Source of the DNA: a virus
Lineage: Duplodnaviria; Heunggongvirae; Uroviricota; Caudoviricetes
DNA length: 35,232 nt
Reading direction: 5' to 3' (one strand)
IMG/VR virus record: IMGVR_UViG_2541047821_000009
Shown here: positions 1 through 35,232 of the stretch, piece after piece
Layout: every line of letters begins with the position of its first letter
How positions within the stretch are numbered: the stretch's first letter is position 1
Translations under genes and position numbers: made by a program
Notes under the pieces: model-generated
What the model saw: only the letters and a program-made list of their open reading frames with translations
What the model was told of the DNA's origin: nothing
Database searches by the model: none

Positions 1-1011
1 TTATAACGTCACTCCGCCTTTTAGTGGATTCAGAGTGACGGCGTTCTGCAGGTAGTCAGGCGCAAGGTGCGCATAGGTCATTGTCTGCTGAATGCTCGCA
101 TGCCCCAGAATCTGTTGCAGTGCAATTATGTTGCCCCCATTCATCATGAAATGGCTTGCGAATGTATGCCGCAGAATGTGGGTTGCCTGATTGGGAGGTA
201 TATCAGGTTTCACTCTGCGTAAAATCCCGCAAAACTTCTCATAATCTACCTTGAACAATTTGGCGCTGGCCTCCTCTTTAACTTTTTTCTCCAGTTCCTC
301 AGAAATCGGCACTGTTCGCTTTTTACCGTTTTTGGTTTTCAGGAAGGTAACCCTGCAACTTGTAATCTGTGCTGGTTTTAGCGTGGCAACTTCCGTCCAT
401 CTTCCTCCAGTGCTCAGACATAAAAGCGCGACAAGTAAGTCATCACCAGTCAAAACATTTAGCAGTTTTTCGATTTCCGCTTTTTCCAGGAACGTCATTT
501 CAGGGTTAGCCTCCGTCAGTGGCGGCAGTCCGTGAATTGGGTGTTGCCCGGAAAATTCATCCAATTGAATTAATTTTGTGAACATGCCGGATAATCGGTA
601 CATGTCGCGGTTTATCGTTGCAGCACTGATGCCGTCACGTAGTCGCATGGAGCGATAATCCATCAAAGCCCTTTTGTTCATCCGACTCACTGGTATATCA
701 CCTATGCCGCTGATGGTTTTGAGCAGATGATTAAACTCTTTTGTCCCATGCTCGTGGTTTTGCCCGTGGTATTTCCACCAGATGTCGAGCAATTCTGTCA
801 AAGTTCGGCGGTCTGCTCGCTGGCCTCCCCATTCTTTCTGACTGGCATTGGCGATTGTGTATCGCTCAAATGCTAGTGCTTCAGCTTTTCTTTCAAATTT
901 CCTGCGGATGCGTTTTCCGTCGCGACCGCGAGGTCTAATGTCCACTTCATAGCGACCATCATCGAGCTTCTTAATTGCCATAAGAAAGCCCTCCGGCGCT
1001 GTATTCACCAT
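1..1011 (-). CDS. int: Tyrosine recombinase (P2-type integrase)
   Basis: 336-aa ORF; C-terminal box II 'ILRHTFASHF' and catalytic Tyr context 'TMTYAHL'; sits at the prophage end beside the C repressor as in P2; minus-strand stop codon at bases 1-3. Confidence 0.9.
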   Translation of the reverse strand: MVNTAPEGFLMAIKKLDDGRYEVDIRPRGRDGKRIRRKFERKAEALAFERYTIANASQKEWGGQRADRRTLTELLDIWWKYHGQNHEHGTKEFNHLLKTISGIGDIPVSRMNKRALMDYRSMRLRDGISAATINRDMYRLSGMFTKLIQLDEFSGQHPIHGLPPLTEANPEMTFLEKAEIEKLLNVLTGDDLLVALLCLSTGGRWTEVATLKPAQITSCRVTFLKTKNGKKRTVPISEELEKKVKEEASAKLFKVDYEKFCGILRRVKPDIPPNQATHILRHTFASHFMMNGGNIIALQQILGHASIQQTMTYAHLAPDYLQNAVTLNPLKGGVTL

Positions 1012-7625: not shown

Positions 7626-8651
7626 ATGATGATTGTAAAGGTGATAGACCTTTTTTGTGGTGCTGGCGGATTAACTCATGGTTTGCAACTCGCAGGTCTT
7701 GATGTCGTTGCTGGTATTGACCTTGAGGGGGAATGTCGATTTCCCTATGAAAAAAACAATAAATCAAAGTTTATTGAGAAAGATATCGCTAAAGTAACCA
7801 AAGAGGAATTACTGAAGCTATATGGTGATGCGTCTATAAAAGTATTGGCTGGATGTGCACCTTGCCAACCTTTTTCAAAATATACTCAAGGAAAAGATAA
7901 AGCGGAAGATAAAAAATGGCCTCTTCTTTATGAGTTCGAGCGTTTAATTCGCGAGGTATCTCCAGAAATTGTAACAATGGAGAACGTGCCTGATGTAACT
8001 AAACATAAAGTTTATAATGACTTTTATTGTTCGTTGTTAGAACTGGGATATTATGTTTGGGCATCAAAGGTTGATTGTGTCGAATATGGAATTCCACAGA
8101 ACCGTTCTCGTCATGTATTGTTAGCCTCAAAGTTGGGGGAGATTGAGTTAGTAAAACGTAATGATGTTATTTTGAAAACTGTTAGGGATGCAATAGGTGG
8201 CCTTCCACCATTAGAAGATGGTCAAACAGATCCAAATGATATATTGCATAGAGCCAGTAAATTAAACTCGATTAATAAAAAAAGAATTATACACTCTATT
8301 CCAGGTGGTACATGGAAGGACTGGCCGGAAGAACTTATTGCTGCTTGTCATATGAAGTCTAGCGGTAAAGGGTATGCTAGCGTATATGGGAGGATGTCTT
8401 GGGATAAGCCAAGCCCGACAATTACAACTCTTTGTTATGGTTTTGGGAATGGTCGTTTTGGCCACCCAGAACAGAACAGAGCTATTTCTCTTAGAGAAGC
8501 GGCTTTGTTGCAAACATTTCCTATGGATTATGTTTTTGTTGAAGAACAAGAAAAGTTTGTTATAAGAAGTATTGGAAAAATGATAGGTAATGCTGTGCCA
8601 GTTGAGTTAGGAAAAGTCATTGGGCAATCAATAAAAAATCATTTGAAATAA
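7626..8651 (+). CDS. DNA (cytosine-5)-methyltransferase
   Basis: Motif I 'LFCGAGG', motif IV 'GCAPCQPFS', motif VI 'TMENVPD', motif VIII 'QNRSRHVLLA', C-terminal 'GNAVPVELG'; AT-rich codon usage unlike the phage backbone. Confidence 0.85.
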   Translation: MMIVKVIDLFCGAGGLTHGLQLAGLDVVAGIDLEGECRFPYEKNNKSKFIEKDIAKVTKEELLKLYGDASIKVLAGCAPCQPFSKYTQGKDKAEDKKWPLLYEFERLIREVSPEIVTMENVPDVTKHKVYNDFYCSLLELGYYVWASKVDCVEYGIPQNRSRHVLLASKLGEIELVKRNDVILKTVRDAIGGLPPLEDGQTDPNDILHRASKLNSINKKRIIHSIPGGTWKDWPEELIAACHMKSSGKGYASVYGRMSWDKPSPTITTLCYGFGNGRFGHPEQNRAISLREAALLQTFPMDYVFVEEQEKFVIRSIGKMIGNAVPVELGKVIGQSIKNHLK

Positions 8652-8655
8652 TAAA

Positions 8656-8680
8656 ATGGCCTGCTTTGCAGGCCTTGTGA
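8656..8680. terminator. Bidirectional intrinsic terminator between convergent genes
   Basis: Hairpin GGCCTGC-ttt-GCAGGCC (8658-8674) flanked by an A-run upstream and a T-rich tract downstream. Confidence 0.55.
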
Positions 8681-9361
8681 TTATTTCTCTAAGTATTCAT
8701 TATTATTTATATAATGTTCTATATTATTCGCGATTGCATCAAGATAGGCTATTACTTCTAATGAAATATTCTCTAAATCCTGATATGAAACATTTTTCCC
8801 AATCTCAGCAAATGATACATTTCCATGAGATAAATCATTGCGATGTTGTTTAACAGTGGCTAACTTTTCACCATGTTTAGTGTGAGTGTAATCAGAATGG
8901 GTTGAAAATCCATATATTTTCGATTTTTCTTTTATTTCCTCTCTATCAATATTGCCTGAAAATATTTTCTTTTTGTTGAATGTACCATAAGAAATACCAC
9001 AGGATATGCCTTTAGTAAGTCCGTTGATTAAATTATCGATGTTAACAGATTCATTTTTTAATCTTTTTAAAATTTCTGATTTTAGGTTTTTTTTAAGTTT
9101 GTCAAACTCTATGTTTCTATCATAAATAGTCTCATGTATAAGGCAGATAGCCTCTCTCATTGTTGATTCAATAAGGTTGTATAATAGTATATATACTGCA
9201 CCCTTTAGAGTTTTTCGTGATTGAGATGTAATGGTGAACTTATGTTCTTTATTATCGGATGATATTAATTCCGCACCAGCATGCTCAATAAATTTTAAAA
9301 GATCTAAATAGGCCAAGATTTCTCCTGACCTTTCGTCAAAATCCTCACGAAAACGATCCAT
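8681..9361 (-). CDS. HEPN-like protein (putative RNase effector), partner of the DUF262 protein
   Basis: 226 aa; C-terminal 'QHRNDLSHG' fits the HEPN R-x(4-6)-H motif; its start is 1 nt from the stop of the upstream DUF262 gene. Confidence 0.5.
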   Translation of the reverse strand: MDRFREDFDERSGEILAYLDLLKFIEHAGAELISSDNKEHKFTITSQSRKTLKGAVYILLYNLIESTMREAICLIHETIYDRNIEFDKLKKNLKSEILKRLKNESVNIDNLINGLTKGISCGISYGTFNKKKIFSGNIDREEIKEKSKIYGFSTHSDYTHTKHGEKLATVKQHRNDLSHGNVSFAEIGKNVSYQDLENISLEVIAYLDAIANNIEHYINNNEYLEK

Positions 9362-9362
9362 G

Positions 9363-10505
9363 TTAATCCTCTAATAGTTTGTCTCGCACATATTCAATTC
9401 GTTCAATTACCTTCACGCGACTATTTGCTCCGTCGGAGGTGGTTAATTGTTTGAATTCTTCTGAGCTTAGCCAATCTAAGTTTTTGGGGACAAGGTTAGG
9501 CTCTAGACGTAATGCGAGTGCAGCACCAACAGCGAGAGATTCAAATCTAACTCGAGGTGTAGATTTTGCAGTGATAGTTTTCTTAAAGCCTGCTGGGAAA
9601 TGGTTTTCAACGAAAGACAGAACATTCGAAAACTCTTCTTTCATTGAGTTTTGTTCAGCTTCATCTATATTACTCTTTTCCTTCATGTAATCATTCAGAA
9701 AATCACGCACGGAATGATCAAATTTCTTATATTTATCTAAGTAGGCAAAGAATCTCAATGTAAATTCTAACCGTTCATCTCGTTTTTCTTTAGCCTCAGA
9801 TAAAGGTGCTAACTCCTTAAATTTAGATATTGTCGAGCATGGCTTAATAACCTGCGTATATAAATTTGTTGAGCCAAGTTCTGAACCTTTACGAACTTCC
9901 ATATCTTTCAATATGTCACTACCAGAGTTAATTCGCTCAAAAAGATCCCTGCGGGTTTCTTCATTGCATTTAGAACTCAACTCTATAACACGCACAGGAA
10001 TTCTCATGAAACGGCGTTGGCGTGATAATGGTAAATCTTGGAATCTGAAACCATTAAGAGAACTTAAAGATTTCAGATCTTGTAAAACTAATTCATTGTG
10101 GATAAACGCATGTATGGTTCTAACACGCTGTGAGCCATCAACAATTTCAATCCGTCCATCTAAATCGGGATCTTCTGAAAAGACATCAGCTGTAAATATA
10201 TATGGTATAGGGAAGCCCAAAATTAAAGACTCTATTAATCTTGATTGTCTCTTTTCATTCCAAACAAAGTCCCTTTGATAATCAGGAACAAAGAGTTCGT
10301 TGGTATCATCCTCTAACCCGTTATGATACTTATTAACTAATAACTCAACAGTAAATTCTTTGGTCTCAAAGTCAACATCCTTTTGCTCTGCGCGAATTTG
10401 CTCTTCAGCCTCTTGTTTTATAACTTCTAGCTGAGCTAGGAGTTCTGCCCTTTTTTTGGCATTATCTTCATGTTCTAGTTGAGATTTTAACCCAATAATA
10501 TCCAT
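9363..10505 (-). CDS. DUF262 (ParB/Srx-like, GmrS-type N-terminal domain) protein
   Basis: 380 aa; 'VPDYQRDFVW' and 'IVDGSQRVRTI' match the DUF262 signatures; no HNH/DUF1524 nuclease domain seen in the C-terminal half. Confidence 0.7.
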   Translation of the reverse strand: MDIIGLKSQLEHEDNAKKRAELLAQLEVIKQEAEEQIRAEQKDVDFETKEFTVELLVNKYHNGLEDDTNELFVPDYQRDFVWNEKRQSRLIESLILGFPIPYIFTADVFSEDPDLDGRIEIVDGSQRVRTIHAFIHNELVLQDLKSLSSLNGFRFQDLPLSRQRRFMRIPVRVIELSSKCNEETRRDLFERINSGSDILKDMEVRKGSELGSTNLYTQVIKPCSTISKFKELAPLSEAKEKRDERLEFTLRFFAYLDKYKKFDHSVRDFLNDYMKEKSNIDEAEQNSMKEEFSNVLSFVENHFPAGFKKTITAKSTPRVRFESLAVGAALALRLEPNLVPKNLDWLSSEEFKQLTTSDGANSRVKVIERIEYVRDKLLED

Positions 10506-26057: not shown

Positions 26058-26651
26058 ATGTTTACTAAGCGACGATTAAAAAATATTAACTGGGAGGCAA
26101 GTTCAGTGATTCTTGCTATGGTTCTCTTTGTTGGAAATATATTTTATACAAATCATCGTGATGATATAACTATGGAGGCTGAGAGGGACAGTATCAGAAC
26201 AATGTTTGCATATGAAATCGCTAATAACCATCGCGCTCTCACTTTTCTTGATAAAACGAGATATATTGGCTTTGACGAAAATTCGGAGCATTTTGTTGGC
26301 GAGCCTTTTGCCATTAATGTCAAATCATTAGGGGGGCCTCGCTTACAGATTGCATTAAACCAGACTGATAAAGTGTTTAAATCCTACTTCAGCGAATTAA
26401 GTAAGCTTGATAAAGAGGATGTTACTCTTCTTATGGACTATTACCATGAGCAAAGCATCCTGCTGGAGCGTGTAAAATCTACGTTACAGAAGATGAAAAG
26501 TGGTAATGATATTAAAGTTGATATTGATGGTTACTTATTAGAAGAACACTTCATGAATGAGCTTAATCTTTCTAATATTTTGCTTAAACGCTATAGCCAT
26601 TTGTTGTCACAACACGCCAAAGAACATAAAACAAAAGATTTACATAATTGA
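26058..26651 (+). CDS. Membrane-anchored hypothetical protein at the Z/fun-equivalent locus
   Basis: 197 aa; AAGGTG ribosome-binding site; N-terminal transmembrane helix 'SSVILAMVLFVGNIFY'; strongly AT-rich; no recognisable domain. Confidence 0.6.
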   Translation: MFTKRRLKNINWEASSVILAMVLFVGNIFYTNHRDDITMEAERDSIRTMFAYEIANNHRALTFLDKTRYIGFDENSEHFVGEPFAINVKSLGGPRLQIALNQTDKVFKSYFSELSKLDKEDVTLLMDYYHEQSILLERVKSTLQKMKSGNDIKVDIDGYLLEEHFMNELNLSNILLKRYSHLLSQHAKEHKTKDLHN

Positions 26652-28183: not shown

Positions 28184-28702
28184 ATGGCAATGCCGCGCAA
28201 ACTCAAGTTAATGAACGTCTTTCTGAACGGATACAGCTATCAGGGCGTTGCAAAGTCCGTCACGCTGCCAAAACTGACCCGTAAGCTCGAAAACTATCGC
28301 GGTGCGGGGATGAACGGCAGCGCACCGGTAGACCTCGGCCTTGATGACGATGCGCTGTCAATGGAGTGGTCGCTCGGGGGCTTCCCGGATTCGGTTATCT
28401 GGGAGCTTTACGCCGCAACCGGTGTGGATGCCGTGCCGATTCGTTTTGCAGGCTCTTACCAGCGTGACGATACCGGCGAAACGGTGGCCGTCGAGGTGGT
28501 CATGCGTGGCCGTCAGAAAGAAATCGACACCGGCGAGGGTAAACAGGGAGAAGACACCGAGTCGAAAATCTCCGTGGTCTGCACCTATTTCCGGCTGACG
28601 ATGGACGGTAAGGAGCTGGTCGAAATTGACACCATCAACATGATTGAGAAGGTGAACGGCGTCGACCGGCTGGAGCAACACCGCCGCAATATCGGCCTGT
28701 GA
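28184..28702 (+). CDS. FII: Tail tube protein (gpFII)
   Basis: 172 aa as in P2 FII; AGGAG ribosome-binding site. Confidence 0.9.
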   Translation: MAMPRKLKLMNVFLNGYSYQGVAKSVTLPKLTRKLENYRGAGMNGSAPVDLGLDDDALSMEWSLGGFPDSVIWELYAATGVDAVPIRFAGSYQRDDTGETVAVEVVMRGRQKEIDTGEGKQGEDTESKISVVCTYFRLTMDGKELVEIDTINMIEKVNGVDRLEQHRRNIGL

Positions 28703-28759
28703 TTTTCATCCGGTCAGCCAGGCTGACCGGTTAACCCCCGATTCAGAAGTGAGAAAACC

Positions 28760-29035
28760 ATGAACAAAGAAAATGTGATTACCCTGGACAATCCGGTCAA
28801 GCGTGGTGAGCAGGTCATCGAACAGGTCACGCTGATGAAACCCAATGCCGGGACGCTGCGCGGTGTCAGTCTGGCAGCGGTCGCAAACTCCGAAGTCGAT
28901 GCACTGATTAAGGTGTTGCCGCGCATGACGGCACCGATGCTGACCGAGCAGGAAGTTGCCGCACTGGAACTGCCTGACCTTGTGGCGCTGGCCGGTAAGG
29001 TGGTCGGTTTTTTGTCGCCGAACTCGGTGCAGTGA
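28760..29035 (+). CDS. E: Tail assembly chaperone (gpE)
   Basis: 91 aa as in P2 E; precedes the tape measure gene. Confidence 0.8.
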   Translation: MNKENVITLDNPVKRGEQVIEQVTLMKPNAGTLRGVSLAAVANSEVDALIKVLPRMTAPMLTEQEVAALELPDLVALAGKVVGFLSPNSVQ

Positions 29036-29187
29036 CATTTCCGAAAAATCTCTCGGTCGATGACCTGATGGCGGATGTGGCAGTGATATTTCACTGGCCG
29101 CCATCAGAACTGTATCCCATGAGCCTGACCGAACTCATCACATGGCGCGAAAAGGCGCTCCGGCGAAGCGGAAACACGAATGAGTAA
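29008..29187 (+). other. Programmed -1 frameshift site (T_TTT_TTG) and E' extension giving the E+E' fusion
   Basis: Slippery heptamer T_TTT_TTG at 29008-29014 in the E frame, 7 codons before the E stop; the -1 frame stays open to TAA at 29185-29187, which overlaps the T start at 29180. Confidence 0.65.
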
Positions 29188-31627
29188 CAATGTAAAATTA
29201 CAGGTATTGCTCAGGGCTGTTGACCAGGCATCCCGCCCGTTTAAATCCATCCGTACAGCGAGTAAGTCGCTGTCGGGGGATATCCGGGACACACAAAAAT
29301 CACTGCGCGAGCTGAACGGTCAGGCATCCCGTATTGAGGGATTTCGCAAGACCAGTGCACAGCTCGCCGTGACTGGTCAGGAACTGAAAAAAGCCAGACA
29401 GGAAGCCGCAGCACTGGCTGTCCAGTTTAAAAATACTGAACGACCGACAAATGCACAGGCAAAGGCAATGGAAGCCGCGCGTAAAAATGCGTCTGAGTTA
29501 CAGGCGAAATATAACAGCCTGAGATTGTCGGTACAGCGCCAGCGTCAGGAATTGAGTCAGGCGGGTATTAATACCCGTAATCTGGCGCATGATGAACGAG
29601 GGCTGAAAAACCGTATCAGTGAAACCACCGCACAGCTTAACCGGCAGCGTGACGCGCTGGCGCGTGTCAGTGCGCAACAGGCAAAACTTAACGCAGTCAA
29701 ACAGCGTTATCAGGCAGGCAAGGAACTGGCCGGAAATATGGCCTCGGTGGGCGCTGCCGGTGTGGGGATTGCGGCGGCGGGAACGATGGCCGGAGTTAAG
29801 CTGCTGATGCCCGGTTATGAGTTTGCGCAGAAAAACTCAGAATTGCAGGCCGTGCTCGGTGTGGCAAAAGATTCCGCCGAAATGGCAGCGCTACGCAAAC
29901 AGGCGCGCCAGCTCGGCGACAACACAGCCGCCTCGGCGGATGATGCAGCAGCAGCTCAAATCATCGTGGCTAAATCAGGAGCGGATAAAAATGGCATCTT
30001 GGCACAAACACCGGCCATTTTGAATATGTCACTGGCAAACAAGAAAACGATGGAGGAAAACGCCACTTTACTTATTGGGACAAAATCGGCATTCGGGCTT
30101 GCTGATGATAAGGCTTCCCATATTGCTGATGTTATTTCAATGACGATGAATAAATCGCAAGCCACATTCGAGGGACTAAGTGATTCACTTACCTATGTCG
30201 GGCCAGTGGCAAAAGATGCAGGTGTCAGCCTGGAAGAAACAGCAGCAATGTTAGGTGCATTACATGATGCAAATATCAGTGGGTCTATGGCTGGCACAGG
30301 AAGTCGAGCAGTACTGAGTCGTTTGCAGGCACCAACCGGGAAAGCGTATGACGCTATTAAAGAGCTTGGCGTAAAGACAACTGACAGCAAAGGTAATACG
30401 CGACCTGTCTTTTCAATTCTGAAAGAAATTCAGCGGAGTTTTGAAAAAAATAAACTAGGAACAGGGCAGCGCGCTGAATACATGAAAACAATATTCGGCG
30501 AAGAGGCCAGCTCATCAGCAAGTGTATTAATGACAGCAGCAGCCAGCGGCAAGCTGGATAATCTGACCAGGTTGATTAAAGAATCTGACGGTAAAACAGA
30601 AGAACTGGTTAAGGTTATGCAGGATAACCTCGGCGGCGACTTTAAATCGTTTCAGTCAGCGTATCAGGCTGTTGGCACTGACCTGTTTGACCAGCAGGAA
30701 GGCGCACTGCGTAATCTCACGCAGACGGCCACAAAGTATGTGTTAAAACTCGACGGCTGGATCCAGAAAAACAAATCACTGGCGTCAACCATCGGCCTCA
30801 TTGTCGGTGGTGCACTGGCGCTGATTGGTGTCATCGGTGCCATTGGCCTCGTAGCCTGGCCGGTTATCACCGGCATCAATGCCATTATCGCAGCAGCAAG
30901 TGCAATGGGGGCAATCTTCACGACGGTTGGCAGTGCCGTTATGACGGCTATCGGGGCGATTAGCTGGCCGGTAGTGGCCGTGGTGGCTGCAATTGTCGCC
31001 GGGGCGTTGCTTATCCGTAAATACTGGGAGCCTGTCAGCGCATTCTTTGGCGGTGTGGTGGAAGGGCTGAAAGCGGCATTTGCGCCGGTGGGGGAGCTGT
31101 TCACGCCACTGAAGCCGGTGTTTGACTGGCTGGGCGAAAAGTTACAGGCCGCGTGGCAGTGGTTTACAAACCTGATTGCCCCGGTCAAAGCCACCCAGGA
31201 CACCCTGAACCGTTGCCGTGATACGGGTGTCATGTTCGGGCAGGCACTGGCTGACGCGCTGATGCTGCCGCTTAATGCGTTCAACAAACTGCGCAGCGGT
31301 ATTGACTGGGTACTGGAAAAACTCGGTGTCATCAACAAAGAGTCAGACACACTTGACCAGACCGCCGCCAGAACTCAAGCCGCCACGTATGGCAGCGGTG
31401 GTTATATTCCGGCGACCAGCTCTTATGCAGGTTATCAGGCTTATCAGCCGGTCACGGCACCGGCTGGCCGCTCTTATGTGGACCAGAGTAAAAACGAATA
31501 TCACATCAGCCTGACGGGTGGTACTGCGCCGGGGACACAGCTCGACCGCCAGTTACAGGATGCGCTCGAAAAATACGAACGGGATAAACGTGCGCGCGCC
31601 CGTGCCAGCATGATGCATGACGGTTAA
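29180..31627 (+). CDS. T: Tail tape measure protein (gpT)
   Basis: 815 aa as in P2 T; coiled-coil N-terminal part, Gly/Ala-rich hydrophobic middle. Confidence 0.85.
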   Translation: MSNNVKLQVLLRAVDQASRPFKSIRTASKSLSGDIRDTQKSLRELNGQASRIEGFRKTSAQLAVTGQELKKARQEAAALAVQFKNTERPTNAQAKAMEAARKNASELQAKYNSLRLSVQRQRQELSQAGINTRNLAHDERGLKNRISETTAQLNRQRDALARVSAQQAKLNAVKQRYQAGKELAGNMASVGAAGVGIAAAGTMAGVKLLMPGYEFAQKNSELQAVLGVAKDSAEMAALRKQARQLGDNTAASADDAAAAQIIVAKSGADKNGILAQTPAILNMSLANKKTMEENATLLIGTKSAFGLADDKASHIADVISMTMNKSQATFEGLSDSLTYVGPVAKDAGVSLEETAAMLGALHDANISGSMAGTGSRAVLSRLQAPTGKAYDAIKELGVKTTDSKGNTRPVFSILKEIQRSFEKNKLGTGQRAEYMKTIFGEEASSSASVLMTAAASGKLDNLTRLIKESDGKTEELVKVMQDNLGGDFKSFQSAYQAVGTDLFDQQEGALRNLTQTATKYVLKLDGWIQKNKSLASTIGLIVGGALALIGVIGAIGLVAWPVITGINAIIAAASAMGAIFTTVGSAVMTAIGAISWPVVAVVAAIVAGALLIRKYWEPVSAFFGGVVEGLKAAFAPVGELFTPLKPVFDWLGEKLQAAWQWFTNLIAPVKATQDTLNRCRDTGVMFGQALADALMLPLNAFNKLRSGIDWVLEKLGVINKESDTLDQTAARTQAATYGSGGYIPATSSYAGYQAYQPVTAPAGRSYVDQSKNEYHISLTGGTAPGTQLDRQLQDALEKYERDKRARARASMMHDG

Positions 31628-31641
31628 GGAGGTGACGAAAA

Positions 31642-32121
31642 ATGATGCTCGCGTTAGGTATGTTTGTTTTTATGCGCCAGACGTTGCCACACCAGACCAT
31701 GCAGCGTGAATCAGATTATCGCTGGCCGTCAAATTCCCGTATCGGTAAACGGGATGCCTTTCAGTTTCTCGGTGTGGGTGAGGAAAACATCACGCTTGCC
31801 GGTGTGCTTTATCCCGAACTGACCGGCGGCAAGCTGACGATGACCACGCTCAGACTGATGGCAGAGGAAGGCCGGGCGTGGCCGTTGCTGGATGGCACCG
31901 GCATGATTTACGGCATGTATGTCATCAGCAGGGTGAGTGAAACAGGGAGTATTTTTTTTGCAGACGGCACACCCCGGAAAATTGATTTTACGCTGTCGCT
32001 CACCCGCGTTGATGAATCACTGGCCGCGCTTTATGGCGATATCGGTAAACAGGCGGAATCGCTCATCGGTAAGGCTGGCAGTATGGCAACTAAATTCACG
32101 GGTATGACGGGGGCGGGATAA
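31642..32121 (+). CDS. U: Tail protein (gpU)
   Basis: 159 aa as in P2 U. Confidence 0.85.
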   Translation: MMLALGMFVFMRQTLPHQTMQRESDYRWPSNSRIGKRDAFQFLGVGEENITLAGVLYPELTGGKLTMTTLRLMAEEGRAWPLLDGTGMIYGMYVISRVSETGSIFFADGTPRKIDFTLSLTRVDESLAALYGDIGKQAESLIGKAGSMATKFTGMTGAG

Positions 32122-33284
32122 TGCTGGATGCGCTGACATTTGATGCAGGCAGTACGCTGACACCGGATTACATGCTGATGCTCGACAGCAGGGATATTAC
32201 CGGCAATATCAGTGACCGTCTGATGAGCATGACCCTGACGGATAACCGGGGCTTTGAGGCTGACCAGCTTGATATTGAACTGAACGATGCCGACGGGCAG
32301 GTCGGGCTGCCGGTTCGTGGCGCTGTCCTGACGGTGTATATCGGCTGGAAAGGTTTTGCCCTGGTATGCAAAGGGAAATTCACCGTTGATGAGGTTGAAC
32401 ACCGGGGCGCGCCGGATGTGGTCACCATCCGCGCCCGGAGTGCAGATTTCCGCGGGACGCTCAATTCCCGCCGTGAAGGCTCCTGGCATGACACCACGCT
32501 CGGTGCGATTGTTGAGGCGATAGCCTCCCGTAACAAGCTGGAAGCCAGTGTCGCTCCGTCACTGGCCGGAATTAAAATCCCGCACATCGACCAGTCGCAG
32601 GAGTCTGATGCGAAATTCCTGACCCGTCTTGCAGAACGCAACGGCGGTGAGGTGTCGGTAAAAATGGGAAAACTGTTGTTTCTCAAAGCGGGGCAGGGGG
32701 TGACGGCCAGCGGTAAAAAAATCCCGCAGATTACCATCGCCCGCAGTGACGGCGACCGCCATCATTTTGCGATTGCTGACCGTGGAGCCTATACCGGCGT
32801 AACAGCAAAGTGGTTACACACCAAAGACCCGAAACCGCAAAAGCAGAAGGTAAAACTGAAACGCAAAAAGAAAGAAAAACACCTGCGCGCACTGGAGCAC
32901 CCGAAAGCGAAACCGGTCAGGCAGAAGAAAGCGCCAAAAGTACCGGAAGCACGCGAAGGTGAATACATGGCCGGTGAGGCTGACAACGTTTTTGCCCTGA
33001 CCACGGTATATGCCACGAAAGCGCAGGCCATGCGCGCCGCTCAGGCGAAGTGGGATAAACTGCAACGGGGCGTTGCGGAGTTCTCCATCAGCCTGGCTAC
33101 CGGTCGGGCAGATATTTACACGGAAACACCGGTTAAAGTGTCAGGCTTTAAGCGCGTCATAGACGAGCAGGACTGGACAATCACTAAGGTGACACATTTT
33201 CTGAATAATAGCGGCTTCACGACGTCCTTAGAGCTTGAGGTCAGGCTTTCTGATGTGGAGTACGAAACAGAAGATGATGAGTGA
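32121..33284 (+). CDS. D: Late-control tail protein (gpD)
   Basis: 387 aa as in P2 D; the ATG overlaps the U stop. Confidence 0.85.
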   Translation: MLDALTFDAGSTLTPDYMLMLDSRDITGNISDRLMSMTLTDNRGFEADQLDIELNDADGQVGLPVRGAVLTVYIGWKGFALVCKGKFTVDEVEHRGAPDVVTIRARSADFRGTLNSRREGSWHDTTLGAIVEAIASRNKLEASVAPSLAGIKIPHIDQSQESDAKFLTRLAERNGGEVSVKMGKLLFLKAGQGVTASGKKIPQITIARSDGDRHHFAIADRGAYTGVTAKWLHTKDPKPQKQKVKLKRKKKEKHLRALEHPKAKPVRQKKAPKVPEAREGEYMAGEADNVFALTTVYATKAQAMRAAQAKWDKLQRGVAEFSISLATGRADIYTETPVKVSGFKRVIDEQDWTITKVTHFLNNSGFTTSLELEVRLSDVEYETEDDE

Positions 33285-33584: not shown

Positions 33585-33596
33585 TTACAAACAGAA

Positions 33597-33625
33597 AGCC
33601 CCTCAGTCGAGGGGCTTTATCTTAT
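33597..33625. terminator. Intrinsic terminator after ogr (possibly bidirectional)
   Basis: Perfect hairpin AGCCCCTC-agtc-GAGGGGCT followed by TTATCTTATTT; the stop of the minus-strand gene lies 10 bp beyond. Confidence 0.6.
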
Positions 33626-33634
33626 TTGAGCTAT

Positions 33635-34042
33635 TTACTTACCTGTGTAGGTATGAGTTTTGGATAACACCACTGTTTGTGCAGGTTTTTCCATTAACGG
33701 AGCGATTTCATTGCATGTGGTCAATGGGTCTTCAAAGGTATATCCAATAGACTTATATTGGTTAACTATATTGATTTCACTTACATTTTTTAAAAATGAA
33801 GAAGGAGCGTCATGTGTCCAGAGTGGGGTGCATACACCGGACATAATTAAATGATTATAGGCTTCTGATGTGATTTTTTTAGCAGGGAGAACAACGGTAA
33901 GAGAGCTATCTTTTGTTGTGATTTCCAGTGGTTGCCATGGTTTCAGTTGTTTTTGAAGAGTTTTAATGTCATTCGTGTTTGCGTATGCATTGAGTGAAAT
34001 TATTAAGGTGGTTATTGCCATTATTGATTTAAGAGTTGCCAT
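33635..34042 (-). CDS. Secreted hypothetical protein (signal peptide)
   Basis: 135 aa; N-terminal signal peptide 'MATLKSIMAITTLIISLNAYA' with an AYA-N cleavage-like site; strongly AT-rich. Confidence 0.5.
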   Translation of the reverse strand: MATLKSIMAITTLIISLNAYANTNDIKTLQKQLKPWQPLEITTKDSSLTVVLPAKKITSEAYNHLIMSGVCTPLWTHDAPSSFLKNVSEINIVNQYKSIGYTFEDPLTTCNEIAPLMEKPAQTVVLSKTHTYTGK

Positions 34043-34093
34043 AGAAAATCCTTAATAAACATTTGGTTGAGTAAATGTTATACATCTAAAAAA

Positions 34094-34117
34094 AGAAAAA
34101 AATAAAGCCCCATATGC
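34094..34117 (-). terminator. Hairpin AAAGCCCC-N8-GGGGCTTT beside an A-run (terminator-like on the minus strand; possible att-core relic)
   Basis: Perfect 8-bp stem read directly; the preceding AAAAAGAAAAAAATAA gives a U-run for the minus strand only. Confidence 0.3.
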
Positions 34118-34221
34118 TTGGGGCTTTCGGTAATCGATGTGGACGCTATGTGGACAGCGTTTGATATAAATCCATTTATATCATCAGGTTAGGTGCTTTT
34201 TTGTGACACCATCCCTGTCTT

Positions 34222-34248
34222 CCCCCACATGATGTGGGGGTTTTTTTT
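34222..34248 (+). terminator. Intrinsic terminator (plus strand) upstream of fieF
   Basis: CCCCCACA-tga-TGTGGGGG hairpin followed by TTTTTTTT. Confidence 0.6.
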
Positions 34249-34329
34249 ATCCTCAATTTGCCTGCTGCTTAATGCATTGCAGATGATTTGCTTCCGTTAT
34301 ACTAGCGTCAGTTGATAGCGGGAGTATTT

Positions 34330-35232
34330 ATGAATCAATCTTATGGACGGCTGGTCAGTCGGGCGGCGATTGCTGCAACGGCGATGGCTTCACTGCTATT
34401 GCTGATTAAAATTTTTGCATGGTGGTATACCGGGTCGGTGAGTATTCTCGCCGCGCTGGTGGATTCGCTGGTGGATATCGGCGCGTCGTTGACGAATTTA
34501 CTGGTGGTGCGATATTCCCTGCAACCTGCCGACGATAATCACTCGTTTGGTCACGGTAAAGCTGAGTCCCTCGCGGCGCTGGCGCAAAGTATGTTTATCT
34601 CCGGTTCGGCACTATTCCTCTTTTTGACGGGTATTCAACATCTGATATCTCCAACACCGATGACAGATCCAGGCGTCGGGGTTATCGTGACAATTGTGGC
34701 GCTAATTTGTACGATTATCCTTGTCTCGTTTCAGCGGTGGGTGGTGCGCCGGACGCAAAGCCAGGCGGTGCGGGCTGATATGCTACATTACCAGTCTGAT
34801 GTTATGATGAACGGCGCAATTCTGCTGGCGCTGGGGTTGTCCTGGTACGGCTGGCATCGCGCCGATGCTCTGTTTGCATTGGGAATCGGCATCTATATTT
34901 TATATAGCGCGTTACGCATGGGATATGAGGCGGTACAGTCATTACTGGATCGCGCATTACCTGATGAGGAACGGCAAGAAATTATTGATATCGTGACTTC
35001 CTGGCCGGGTGTTAGCGGCGCTCACGATCTTCGCACGCGGCAGTCAGGGCCGACCCGCTTTATTCAGATTCATTTGGAAATGGAAGACTCTCTGCCTTTG
35101 GTTCAGGCACATATGGTGGCGGATCAGGTAGAGCAGGCTATTTTACGGCGTTTTCCGGGATCGGATGTGATTATCCATCAGGACCCCTGTTCCGTCGTAC
35201 CCAGGGAGGGTAAACGGTCTATGCTTTCATAA
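34330..35232 (+). CDS. fieF: Cation diffusion facilitator family ferrous-iron/zinc efflux transporter FieF (YiiP)
   Basis: Start at '[20 protein letters not shown]' gives 300 aa; multiple transmembrane helices and a cytoplasmic C-terminal domain; recognised as enterobacterial FieF; host gene. Confidence 0.85.

Follow-up and report, generated by a model that had tools for sequence, protein, structure and literature searches.

The tail genes of phage P2 contain the closest described counterpart of the locus reported here. Two published accounts, each referring to Christie et al. 2002 and Xu et al. 2004, state that TTTTTTG is the site of a −1 shift in P2, which yields a 91-aa E protein and a 142-aa E+E' protein (PMC3091744; PMC3931495), the two products sharing one start (PMC3091744). 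The P2 E' frame overlaps the T gene's start, has no ribosome-binding site of its own and reaches '37 nt back into E' (PMC3931495). In the reference record (NC_001895), the long product is annotated as 'E+E'; shares amino terminus with gpE; -1 frameshift; essential tail protein', and a separate feature marks the 'site of -1 translational frameshift'. The E/E+E' frameshift is thus already known, indeed a textbook case, and the locus described here adds no new principle to it. In the work of Christie and colleagues, the efficiency of the shift is reportedly roughly 10%. A comparable arrangement is found in phage lambda, where a −1 shift, occurring at low frequency close to the end of the first ORF, fixes the ratio of short to long product (PMC5009743).

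The E/E+E' cassette and its prophage

The window, i.e., the whole stretch of 35,232 nt that we analyzed, comprises a complete P2-like (Peduovirus) prophage adjoining fieF of E. coli. The prophage spans from an integrase gene (1-1011, minus strand) to gene D (32121-33284), and the flank at 33590-35232 is the fieF region of E. coli. Its late genes (22.8 kb) share 96% identity with Peduovirus phages, and from the order of the ORFs and the P2-like similarity of the whole region we infer that the terminase, capsid, baseplate and fiber genes are located between the integrase and D. The genes around E/E' follow the order FI (sheath; PF04984), FII (tube; PF04985), E/E', T (tape measure; PF10145), U (PF06995) and D (PF05954). 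Within this order, positions 28760-29187 are almost certainly the cassette from which this P2-like prophage makes E and, by programmed −1 ribosomal frameshifting, E+E', judging from the following features of the sequence:

28184..28702, + strand: tail tube gene FII, directly upstream of E (Pfam PF04985 Phage_tube, E = 2e-60)
28760..29035, + strand: gene E, zero-frame product, a 91-aa tail assembly chaperone (ORF list; PF10109; phrog_103)
28999..29035, + strand: 0/−1 overlap of 37 nt in which both frames are open (TAA 28996-98 in the −1 frame; E stop 29033-35)
29008..29014, + strand: slippery heptamer T_TTT_TTG in X_XXY_YYZ phase, the putative −1 shift site (sequence, phase, conservation)
29014..29187, + strand: E' segment, 57 codons plus TAA in the −1 frame, predicted C-terminal extension of E (translation; PF06528; phrog_1756)
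29180..29187, + strand: overlap of the E' stop with the T start (TAA 29185-87, ATG 29180; AATGAGTAA)
29180..31627, + strand: tape-measure gene T, directly downstream of E' (Pfam PF10145 PhageMin_Tail, E = 4e-47)

Gene E starts at the ATG at 28760 and stops at the TGA at 29033-29035. In the −1 frame, a TAA at 28996-98 is followed by an open stretch from 28999 to the TAA at 29185-29187; since both frames are open in 28999-29035 alone, the heptamer and any productive shift are confined to these 37 nt, the same stretch as the published '37 nt' of P2. As in a P2-type pair, the heptamer falls inside this overlap, E/E' is placed between FII and T, and E' has no conserved initiation signal. The slip-site codons are GGT (29006), TTT (29009) and TTG (29012), the last of which is the seventh codon before the E stop (TTG TCG CCG AAC TCG GTG CAG TGA). 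After a slip, reading would resume with GTC at 29014 and continue through 57 sense codons to the TAA at 29185-29187, giving a fusion of 142 aa, of which frame 0 contributes 85 and frame −1 the other 57, with a coding span of exactly 28760-29187. A sequence-only reading of this DNA had placed the heptamer in frame seven codons before the E stop and had let the −1 frame end at a TAA overlapping the T start, and both placements agree with these coordinates; its '58 further codons' in the −1 frame hold as an open frame but number 57 sense codons, 58 being reached only if the stop is counted.

At the nucleotide level, the 428-nt E+E' stretch matches P2 (NC_001895) at 417 of 428 positions. Ten of the 11 differences lie in the first 204 nt, nine of these ten at third codon positions, and the segment 28999-29029, heptamer included, is identical to P2. 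The fusion differs from P2 gpE+E' at one of 142 residues (N29 here, S29 in P2). Both halves belong to curated families: for E this is Pfam PF10109 (Phage_TAC_7; 'tail assembly chaperone proteins E, or 41 or 14'), with 47 bits over residues 7-85 (gathering score 25), and for E' it is PF06528 (Phage_P2_GpE), with 76-79 bits, 78.7 being the score of the E' segment, and E = 2e-22 (gathering score 23). In PHROGs, E is assigned to phrog_103 ('tail protein') and E' to phrog_1756. None of E, E' and the fusion matched an NCBIfam model, and a sequence search of the PDB returned no solved structure of any relative. An alignment of 16 phages, each from a different genus, shows conservation of the E' motif DDLMADIAVIFHWPP...W-R-E across all of these genera.

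Other parts of the prophage also drew our attention. At the position of P2 tin/old lies a low-GC (~35%) cargo island of three genes (7626-10505), which is probably an anti-phage defense module:

7626-8651, + strand: C-5 cytosine DNA methyltransferase
8681-9361, − strand: HEPN MAE_28990-like protein
9363-10505, − strand: GmrSD_N/DUF262 protein, matching PADLOC NsnA and PD-T4-2_A

Between the tail-fiber assembly gene G and the sheath gene FI, at the P2 Z/fun position, a 197-aa ORF (26058-26651; GC 37%) has an apparent hydrophobic N-terminal segment; searches of Pfam and PADLOC gave no match and its sole match is phrog_3829 (unknown function), making it a candidate moron or exclusion gene. The FII-E intergenic region contains a perfect 10-nt inverted repeat at 28710-28730, CCGGTCAGCC a GGCTGACCGG, with no T-run after it, at the position that bears the label 'tI, partial terminator of pJ transcript' in the record of phage 186.

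Conservation of the slip site and other readings of the E' frame

A tblastn search with the fusion protein matched 418 phage records, in 401 of which two pieces together account for at least 80% of its length. Our comparison covers 95 loci, namely 16 phages and 79 prophage loci from genomes of different bacterial species. The phage loci were picked from the tblastn matches and represent different genera; they include 186 and phages of Yersinia, Burkholderia, Klebsiella, Stenotrophomonas, Ralstonia, Pseudomonas, Halomonas and Arsenophonus, as well as Aeromonas, Xuanwuvirus, Vibrio, Acidovorax, Mannheimia and Salmonella. The 79 bacterial loci come from a single-protein genome scan in which one of the search words, LAGKVVGF, touches the slip site and introduces a mild ascertainment bias, of which the 16 phage loci are free. 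Among the bacterial loci, three from genomes labeled Bacteroidota or Firmicutes, one in Chryseobacterium sp. 18061 (L020) and two in Vagococcus sp. WN89Y (L027 and L029), carry enterobacterial-type P2-like E/E' genes with 83-93% protein identity to the window; these are most likely contaminated or mislabeled assemblies.

The −1 frame contains E' at 94 of the 95 loci, each of which also has an X_XXY_YYZ heptamer in frame within the overlap. The heptamers found are T_TTT_TTG (83), T_TTT_TTA (8) and one each of T_TTT_TTT, T_TTT_TTC, A_AAT_TTT and G_GGA_AAG. The sole exception (L074; Enterobacter sp. EA-1, CP025776.1) has its E' homology in the +1 frame and no heptamer, and is probably an indel or a decaying prophage. 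In the 16-phage alignment, the T-rich heptamers fall at one protein position, G-F-L. The A_AAT_TTT of Xuanwuvirus P88_4B11 (L013, 552-558) sits at this same aligned column, and the lambda-type G_GGA_AAG of Mannheimia phage PHL101 (L016, 582-588) lies ~18 codons further downstream; in two Peduoviridae lineages, the T-rich heptamer has given way to other classical slip sites. The residue before Phe can be G, L, S, D, N, Y, P or T, and because its third base is T whatever the amino acid, the constraint acts at the nucleotide level and not at the protein level.

Codon usage in an alignment of 66 enteric relatives gives the same picture at higher resolution. The slip-site codons are GGT in 65 of 65 and TTT in 66 of 66 sequences, followed by TTG or TTA (58 and 8), and on the −1 side GTC (58/58) and GCC (41/41) are fixed as well, whereas glycine codons outside the slip site use 3-4 synonyms. 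Counting synonymous changes by parsimony on a neighbor-joining tree, we found 4 changes in codons 83-87 against 45.7 expected (ratio 0.09), a roughly tenfold suppression. This trough, centered on the heptamer, is the single deep one in the synonymous-rate profile. At the far end of the cassette, the GAG codon of E142 is invariant (56/56), and by annotation the E' stop and the T start overlap or abut in most relatives examined.

Programmed ribosomal frameshifting is not the only conceivable way to a fusion. RNA polymerase could instead stutter on the T6 run and add one extra U to some transcripts, from which E+E' would then be translated. That the slip site is a homopolymer would suit such slippage, but six T form a shorter run than those usually tied to productive polymerase slippage, and relatives use the non-homopolymeric tandem-slip heptamers A_AAT_TTT (Xuanwuvirus) and G_GGA_AAG (Mannheimia PHL101) at the equivalent gene-end position. 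Codon phase should not matter to a polymerase, yet it is the same at 94 loci, and the base after the T run is restricted to G or A, with rare exceptions. A weak terminator-like hairpin with a T-tract, flagged at 28987-29008, would likewise fit slippage by the polymerase; it is, however, not conserved, the wobble base of A78 varying opposite the fixed G of V81. Even with the lack of a canonical ribosomal stimulator downstream of the heptamer counted in its favor, we consider transcriptional slippage very improbable.

It is slightly less probable still that E' is an independent small gene, translated with no recoding from the GTG at 29032 to give 51 aa. PGAP does call a separate 'GpE family phage tail protein' CDS here, overlapping the E stop as GTGA, and many phage records give a separate ORF of 29-51 aa; but the GTG at 29032 is found only in the window, in P2 and at two other near-identical loci, GTA taking its place in 45 of 49 relatives, and the first start-like codon is usually a Met inside the conserved LMAD motif. 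The lack of a ribosome-binding site reported for the P2 E' (PMC3931495) also speaks against an independent start, as do the −1-frame residues between the heptamer and the GTG, which are conserved (e.g., G90 in 65 of 66) and encoded by synonymously frozen codons. As for a chance overlap, or a decayed prophage gene whose −1 ORF goes unexpressed, the window contains the bare heptamer 15 times where 11.5 would be expected, which is no enrichment, and because of this near-chance frequency it is by phase, position and conservation that the heptamer at 29008-29014 is unusual. The −1 ORF, though, matches a curated Pfam family (the E = 2e-22 given above) and is kept across proteobacterial P2-like phages down to ~35% identity, and the E/E' locus is present in 1582 of 5426 complete E. 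coli genomes, nearly always at 95-99% identity. The Pfam match and this breadth of conservation exclude a chance ORF, and we regard an unexpressed remnant as vanishingly improbable. The reading we prefer is therefore the programmed −1 ribosomal frameshift.

Candidate RNA elements around the slip site

A canonical 3' stimulator was not found 5-9 nt after the heptamer, and the segment 29015-29074 folds like its shuffles (z = −0.6), in agreement with published statements on P2, which describe no canonical downstream structure (PMC3091744). A search of 28600-29400 against Rfam gave just two sub-threshold chance matches. As U_UUU_UUG is absent from the heptamers listed as efficient in E. coli (PMC4066793), the heptamer alone does not account for a useful shift rate. 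Several nearby candidates were considered and rejected. A very small GCCG/CGGU hairpin located 3 nt past the heptamer would sit inside the ribosome, and dual coding accounts for its conservation. In the terminator-like hairpin with its T-tract at 28987-29008, four of the pairs are G-U, and the wobble base of A78, in the 5' arm, is free to vary. Under a disome model, a ribosome halted at the stop codon of E would push the ribosome behind it onto the heptamer; the spacing of 18 nt (~21 nt from P site to P site) is too short for this and, moreover, is not conserved outside the enterics. Two further elements, both on the + strand, are retained as candidates:

28997..29005, + strand: candidate Shine-Dalgarno-like box AAGGTGGTC (anti-SD pairing, wobble constraint)
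29065..29107, + strand: candidate conserved RNA hairpin in the E' coding region (folding z-scores, pairing conservation)

Depending on the pairing register, the AAGGTGGTC box lies 2-7 nt 5' of the heptamer, at or below the range of 6-17 nt given for Shine-Dalgarno spacing by Sharma et al. and closer than in established −1 stimulators. It forms the strongest anti-SD duplex in 28730-29211 (−12.8 kcal/mol), within the top 0.18% of 12-mers in the window. Its wobble bases are near-fixed (K80 AAG in 57 of 60, V81 GTG in 63 of 66), whereas other Lys and Val codons vary, and synonymous changes there reach 0.28 (K80) and 0.26 (V81) of the expected number at sites where the −1 frame is untranslated. Compared with synonymous-codon resampling, the signal of the box is modest, with z ~ −1.6 in enterics and −0.8 in distant clades.

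The second candidate is built from an outer stem, CTGATGGCGG/CCGCCATCAG, and an inner stem, AGTGA/TCACT, and sits in the most conserved E' motif, LMADVAVIFHWPPSE, 51 nt 3' of the slip site, where ribosomes would be sparse. At this distance it is not a classical stimulator. The hairpin is more stable than dinucleotide shuffles (z = −4.0) and is the sole outlier of the CDS against a synonymous null (z ~ −2.2); it also beats the synonymous null in most enteric relatives (mean z −2.1, n = 53) and in 41% of distant relatives, the Cupriavidus/Ralstonia clade being an exception. Across the alignment, 88.8% of cells pair, compared with 28-61% when the partner is slid. The substitutions include many wobble-compatible changes and one compensatory event (GC to CG/UG, with a Pro-to-Gly change, in the Scandinavium clade). 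Wobble sites that need one specific base for pairing (L103, A105, V109, H112 and P114) have observed/expected ratios of 0-0.34, whereas no such constraint is seen (0.94-1.64) in the loop or at wobble positions facing U, with which either A or G can pair.

RNAalifold adds helices at 29014-21/29057-64 and, weakly, at 29000-10/29131-41, and according to this model the hairpin may be part of a larger fold with both. Taken as a whole, the 162-nt domain exceeds its synonymous nulls in stability in 66 of 66 relatives (mean z −1.5). For the long-range helix 29000-10/29131-41, which is G-U-rich, was scored on its source alignment and leaves the fixed K80 wobble unexplained, there is a weak possibility that it is real. 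All of these values derive from phylogenetically related sequences in which the amino-acid motif itself favors pairing, with some structures scored on their source alignment, and the evidence for the box and the hairpin as functional elements is suggestive. That the enterobacterial P2-type E/E' cassette carries two undescribed RNA elements, the AGGUGRUY box (28997-29005) and the hairpin (29065-29107), under synonymous-site purifying selection is a proposal we make tentatively, while leaning against it ourselves. If it were true, the two elements could lift the otherwise modest slip rate of U_UUU_UUG; more speculatively, they might serve stability, Rho polarity or an initiation of T coupled to the frameshift.

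Proposed mechanism and comparison with known systems

Under the preferred reading, most ribosomes would end E at the TGA and release the 91-aa chaperone, and a minority would slip back by one base. At the slip, tRNA-Phe on UUU (29009-11) would occupy the P site and tRNA-Leu on UUG (29012-14) the A site; both tRNAs would re-pair on U_UUU_UU, and reading would restart at GUC (29014). The shifted ribosomes would then read 57 codons to the TAA at 29185-87 and yield the 142-aa E+E', which shares its N-terminus with E. A tandem slip after Leu decoding would leave the junction ...VVGFLVAELGAVTFPK, and a slip before A-site decoding the junction ...VVGFFVAELGAVTFPK. Databases hold 142-aa products of both kinds, GFL|VAEL (e.g., Wphi gpE+E', ...GFLVAEL...) and GFF|VAEL. 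If the analogy with lambda gpG/gpGT holds, the tape-measure protein T would be coated by E and by the E portion of E+E', the E' domain would recruit the tail tube protein FII, neither chaperone would stay in the virion, and the frameshift would set the E:E+E' ratio. The ribosomal nature of the shift, its efficiency, the essentiality of E' and the chaperone roles are points that we infer or take from the literature.

The overlap of the E' stop with the T start is probably a point of translational coupling. The T ribosome-binding site is a weak GGA, and in a predicted fold of 29036-29200, ACUCAU (29133-38) pairs with AUGAGU (29180-85), T start codon included. Given the overlap and this weak GGA, translation of T may be coupled to ribosomes that have frameshifted into E'.

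The chief value of the locus lies in annotation. The sequence-only reading had held that standard ORF callers overlook the fusion, and PGAP indeed reports E and, from the GTG, the separate 51-aa 'GpE family phage tail protein'. Like PGAP, many phage records split E+E' into E and a spurious 'GpE family' ORF of 29-51 aa, and some omit E' entirely; since pipelines split or drop it in this way, the 142-aa product is missing from most proteomes. The databases also contain entries for versions of E+E' (P0001, P0003, P0005, P0009 and P0022). Among database sequences are in-frame fusions of 141-144 aa that read ...GFVAEL... (P0009 stands for 22 sequences); these may be T-run length variants or assembly errors, and they would yield the long product alone. 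Beyond annotation, the locus is a clean and deeply conserved case of recoding that sets chaperone stoichiometry, and it poses a mechanistic question, namely how a heptamer outside the list of efficient ones in E. coli reaches a useful rate with no canonical 3' stimulator, for which the SD-like box and the hairpin are candidates.

Among described systems, P2 gpE/gpE+E' of the FETUD operon (Christie, Temple, Bartlett & Goodwin 2002, J Bacteriol 184:6522) is the nearest. The two loci share the genes, the 428-nt length, the heptamer and its phase, the 37-nt overlap and the overlap of the E' stop with the T start, but the window locus resides in a different P2-like prophage with other cargo genes. 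The earlier reading's likening of the locus to the P2 tail chaperones is borne out by a fusion identical to that of P2 at 141 of 142 aa and by the −1 frameshift product annotated in NC_001895, and its claim of a conserved shift by the 94 of 95 related loci with E' in the −1 frame and an in-frame heptamer.

Coliphage 186 orf51/orf52 (gene H) has homologous E and E' domains in a −1 relation and a T-rich heptamer at G-F-L. The E/E' pairs of Burkholderia KS5, KS14 and KL3 and of Stenotrophomonas Smp131 likewise combine the same domains, the −1 relation and a T-rich heptamer (PMC3091744; PMC3931495). These and other Peduoviridae pairs differ from the window in their identity of 35-75% and in their longer E tails, which extend for up to 22 codons or more past the heptamer; T7G, T6C, A_AAT_TTT or G_GGA_AAG is found in some of them.

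The lambda gpG/gpGT system (Levin et al. 1993; Xu, Hendrix & Duda 2004, 2013, 2014) has the same architecture and logic, with two overlapping ORFs between the major tail and tape-measure genes, as here (PMC5009743). Overlapping ORFs, a position between tube and tape measure and a shift near the end of the first ORF, which characterize the lambda G/GT class, are all present (94 of 95 loci), and the placement of E/E' between the FII tube and T tape-measure genes accords with the lambda-like architecture that had been suggested earlier. Lambda nevertheless uses the heptamer G_GGA_AAG, and its tail is non-contractile, unlike that of P2, a myovirus with a sheath. Given no amino-acid similarity between the P2-type chaperones and lambda gpG/gpT (PMC3931495), we regard the relation as one of analogy or architecture and not of demonstrated homology.

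E. coli dnaX (gamma/tau) is also a bacterial tandem-slippage heptamer, and its upstream SD-like stimulator is comparable to the box described here. In dnaX, the heptamer is A_AAA_AAG, the SD lies ~10 nt upstream and a strong hairpin follows ~6 nt downstream, whereas in the P2-like cassette the SD-like box lies 2-7 nt upstream and the only significant hairpin is 51 nt downstream.
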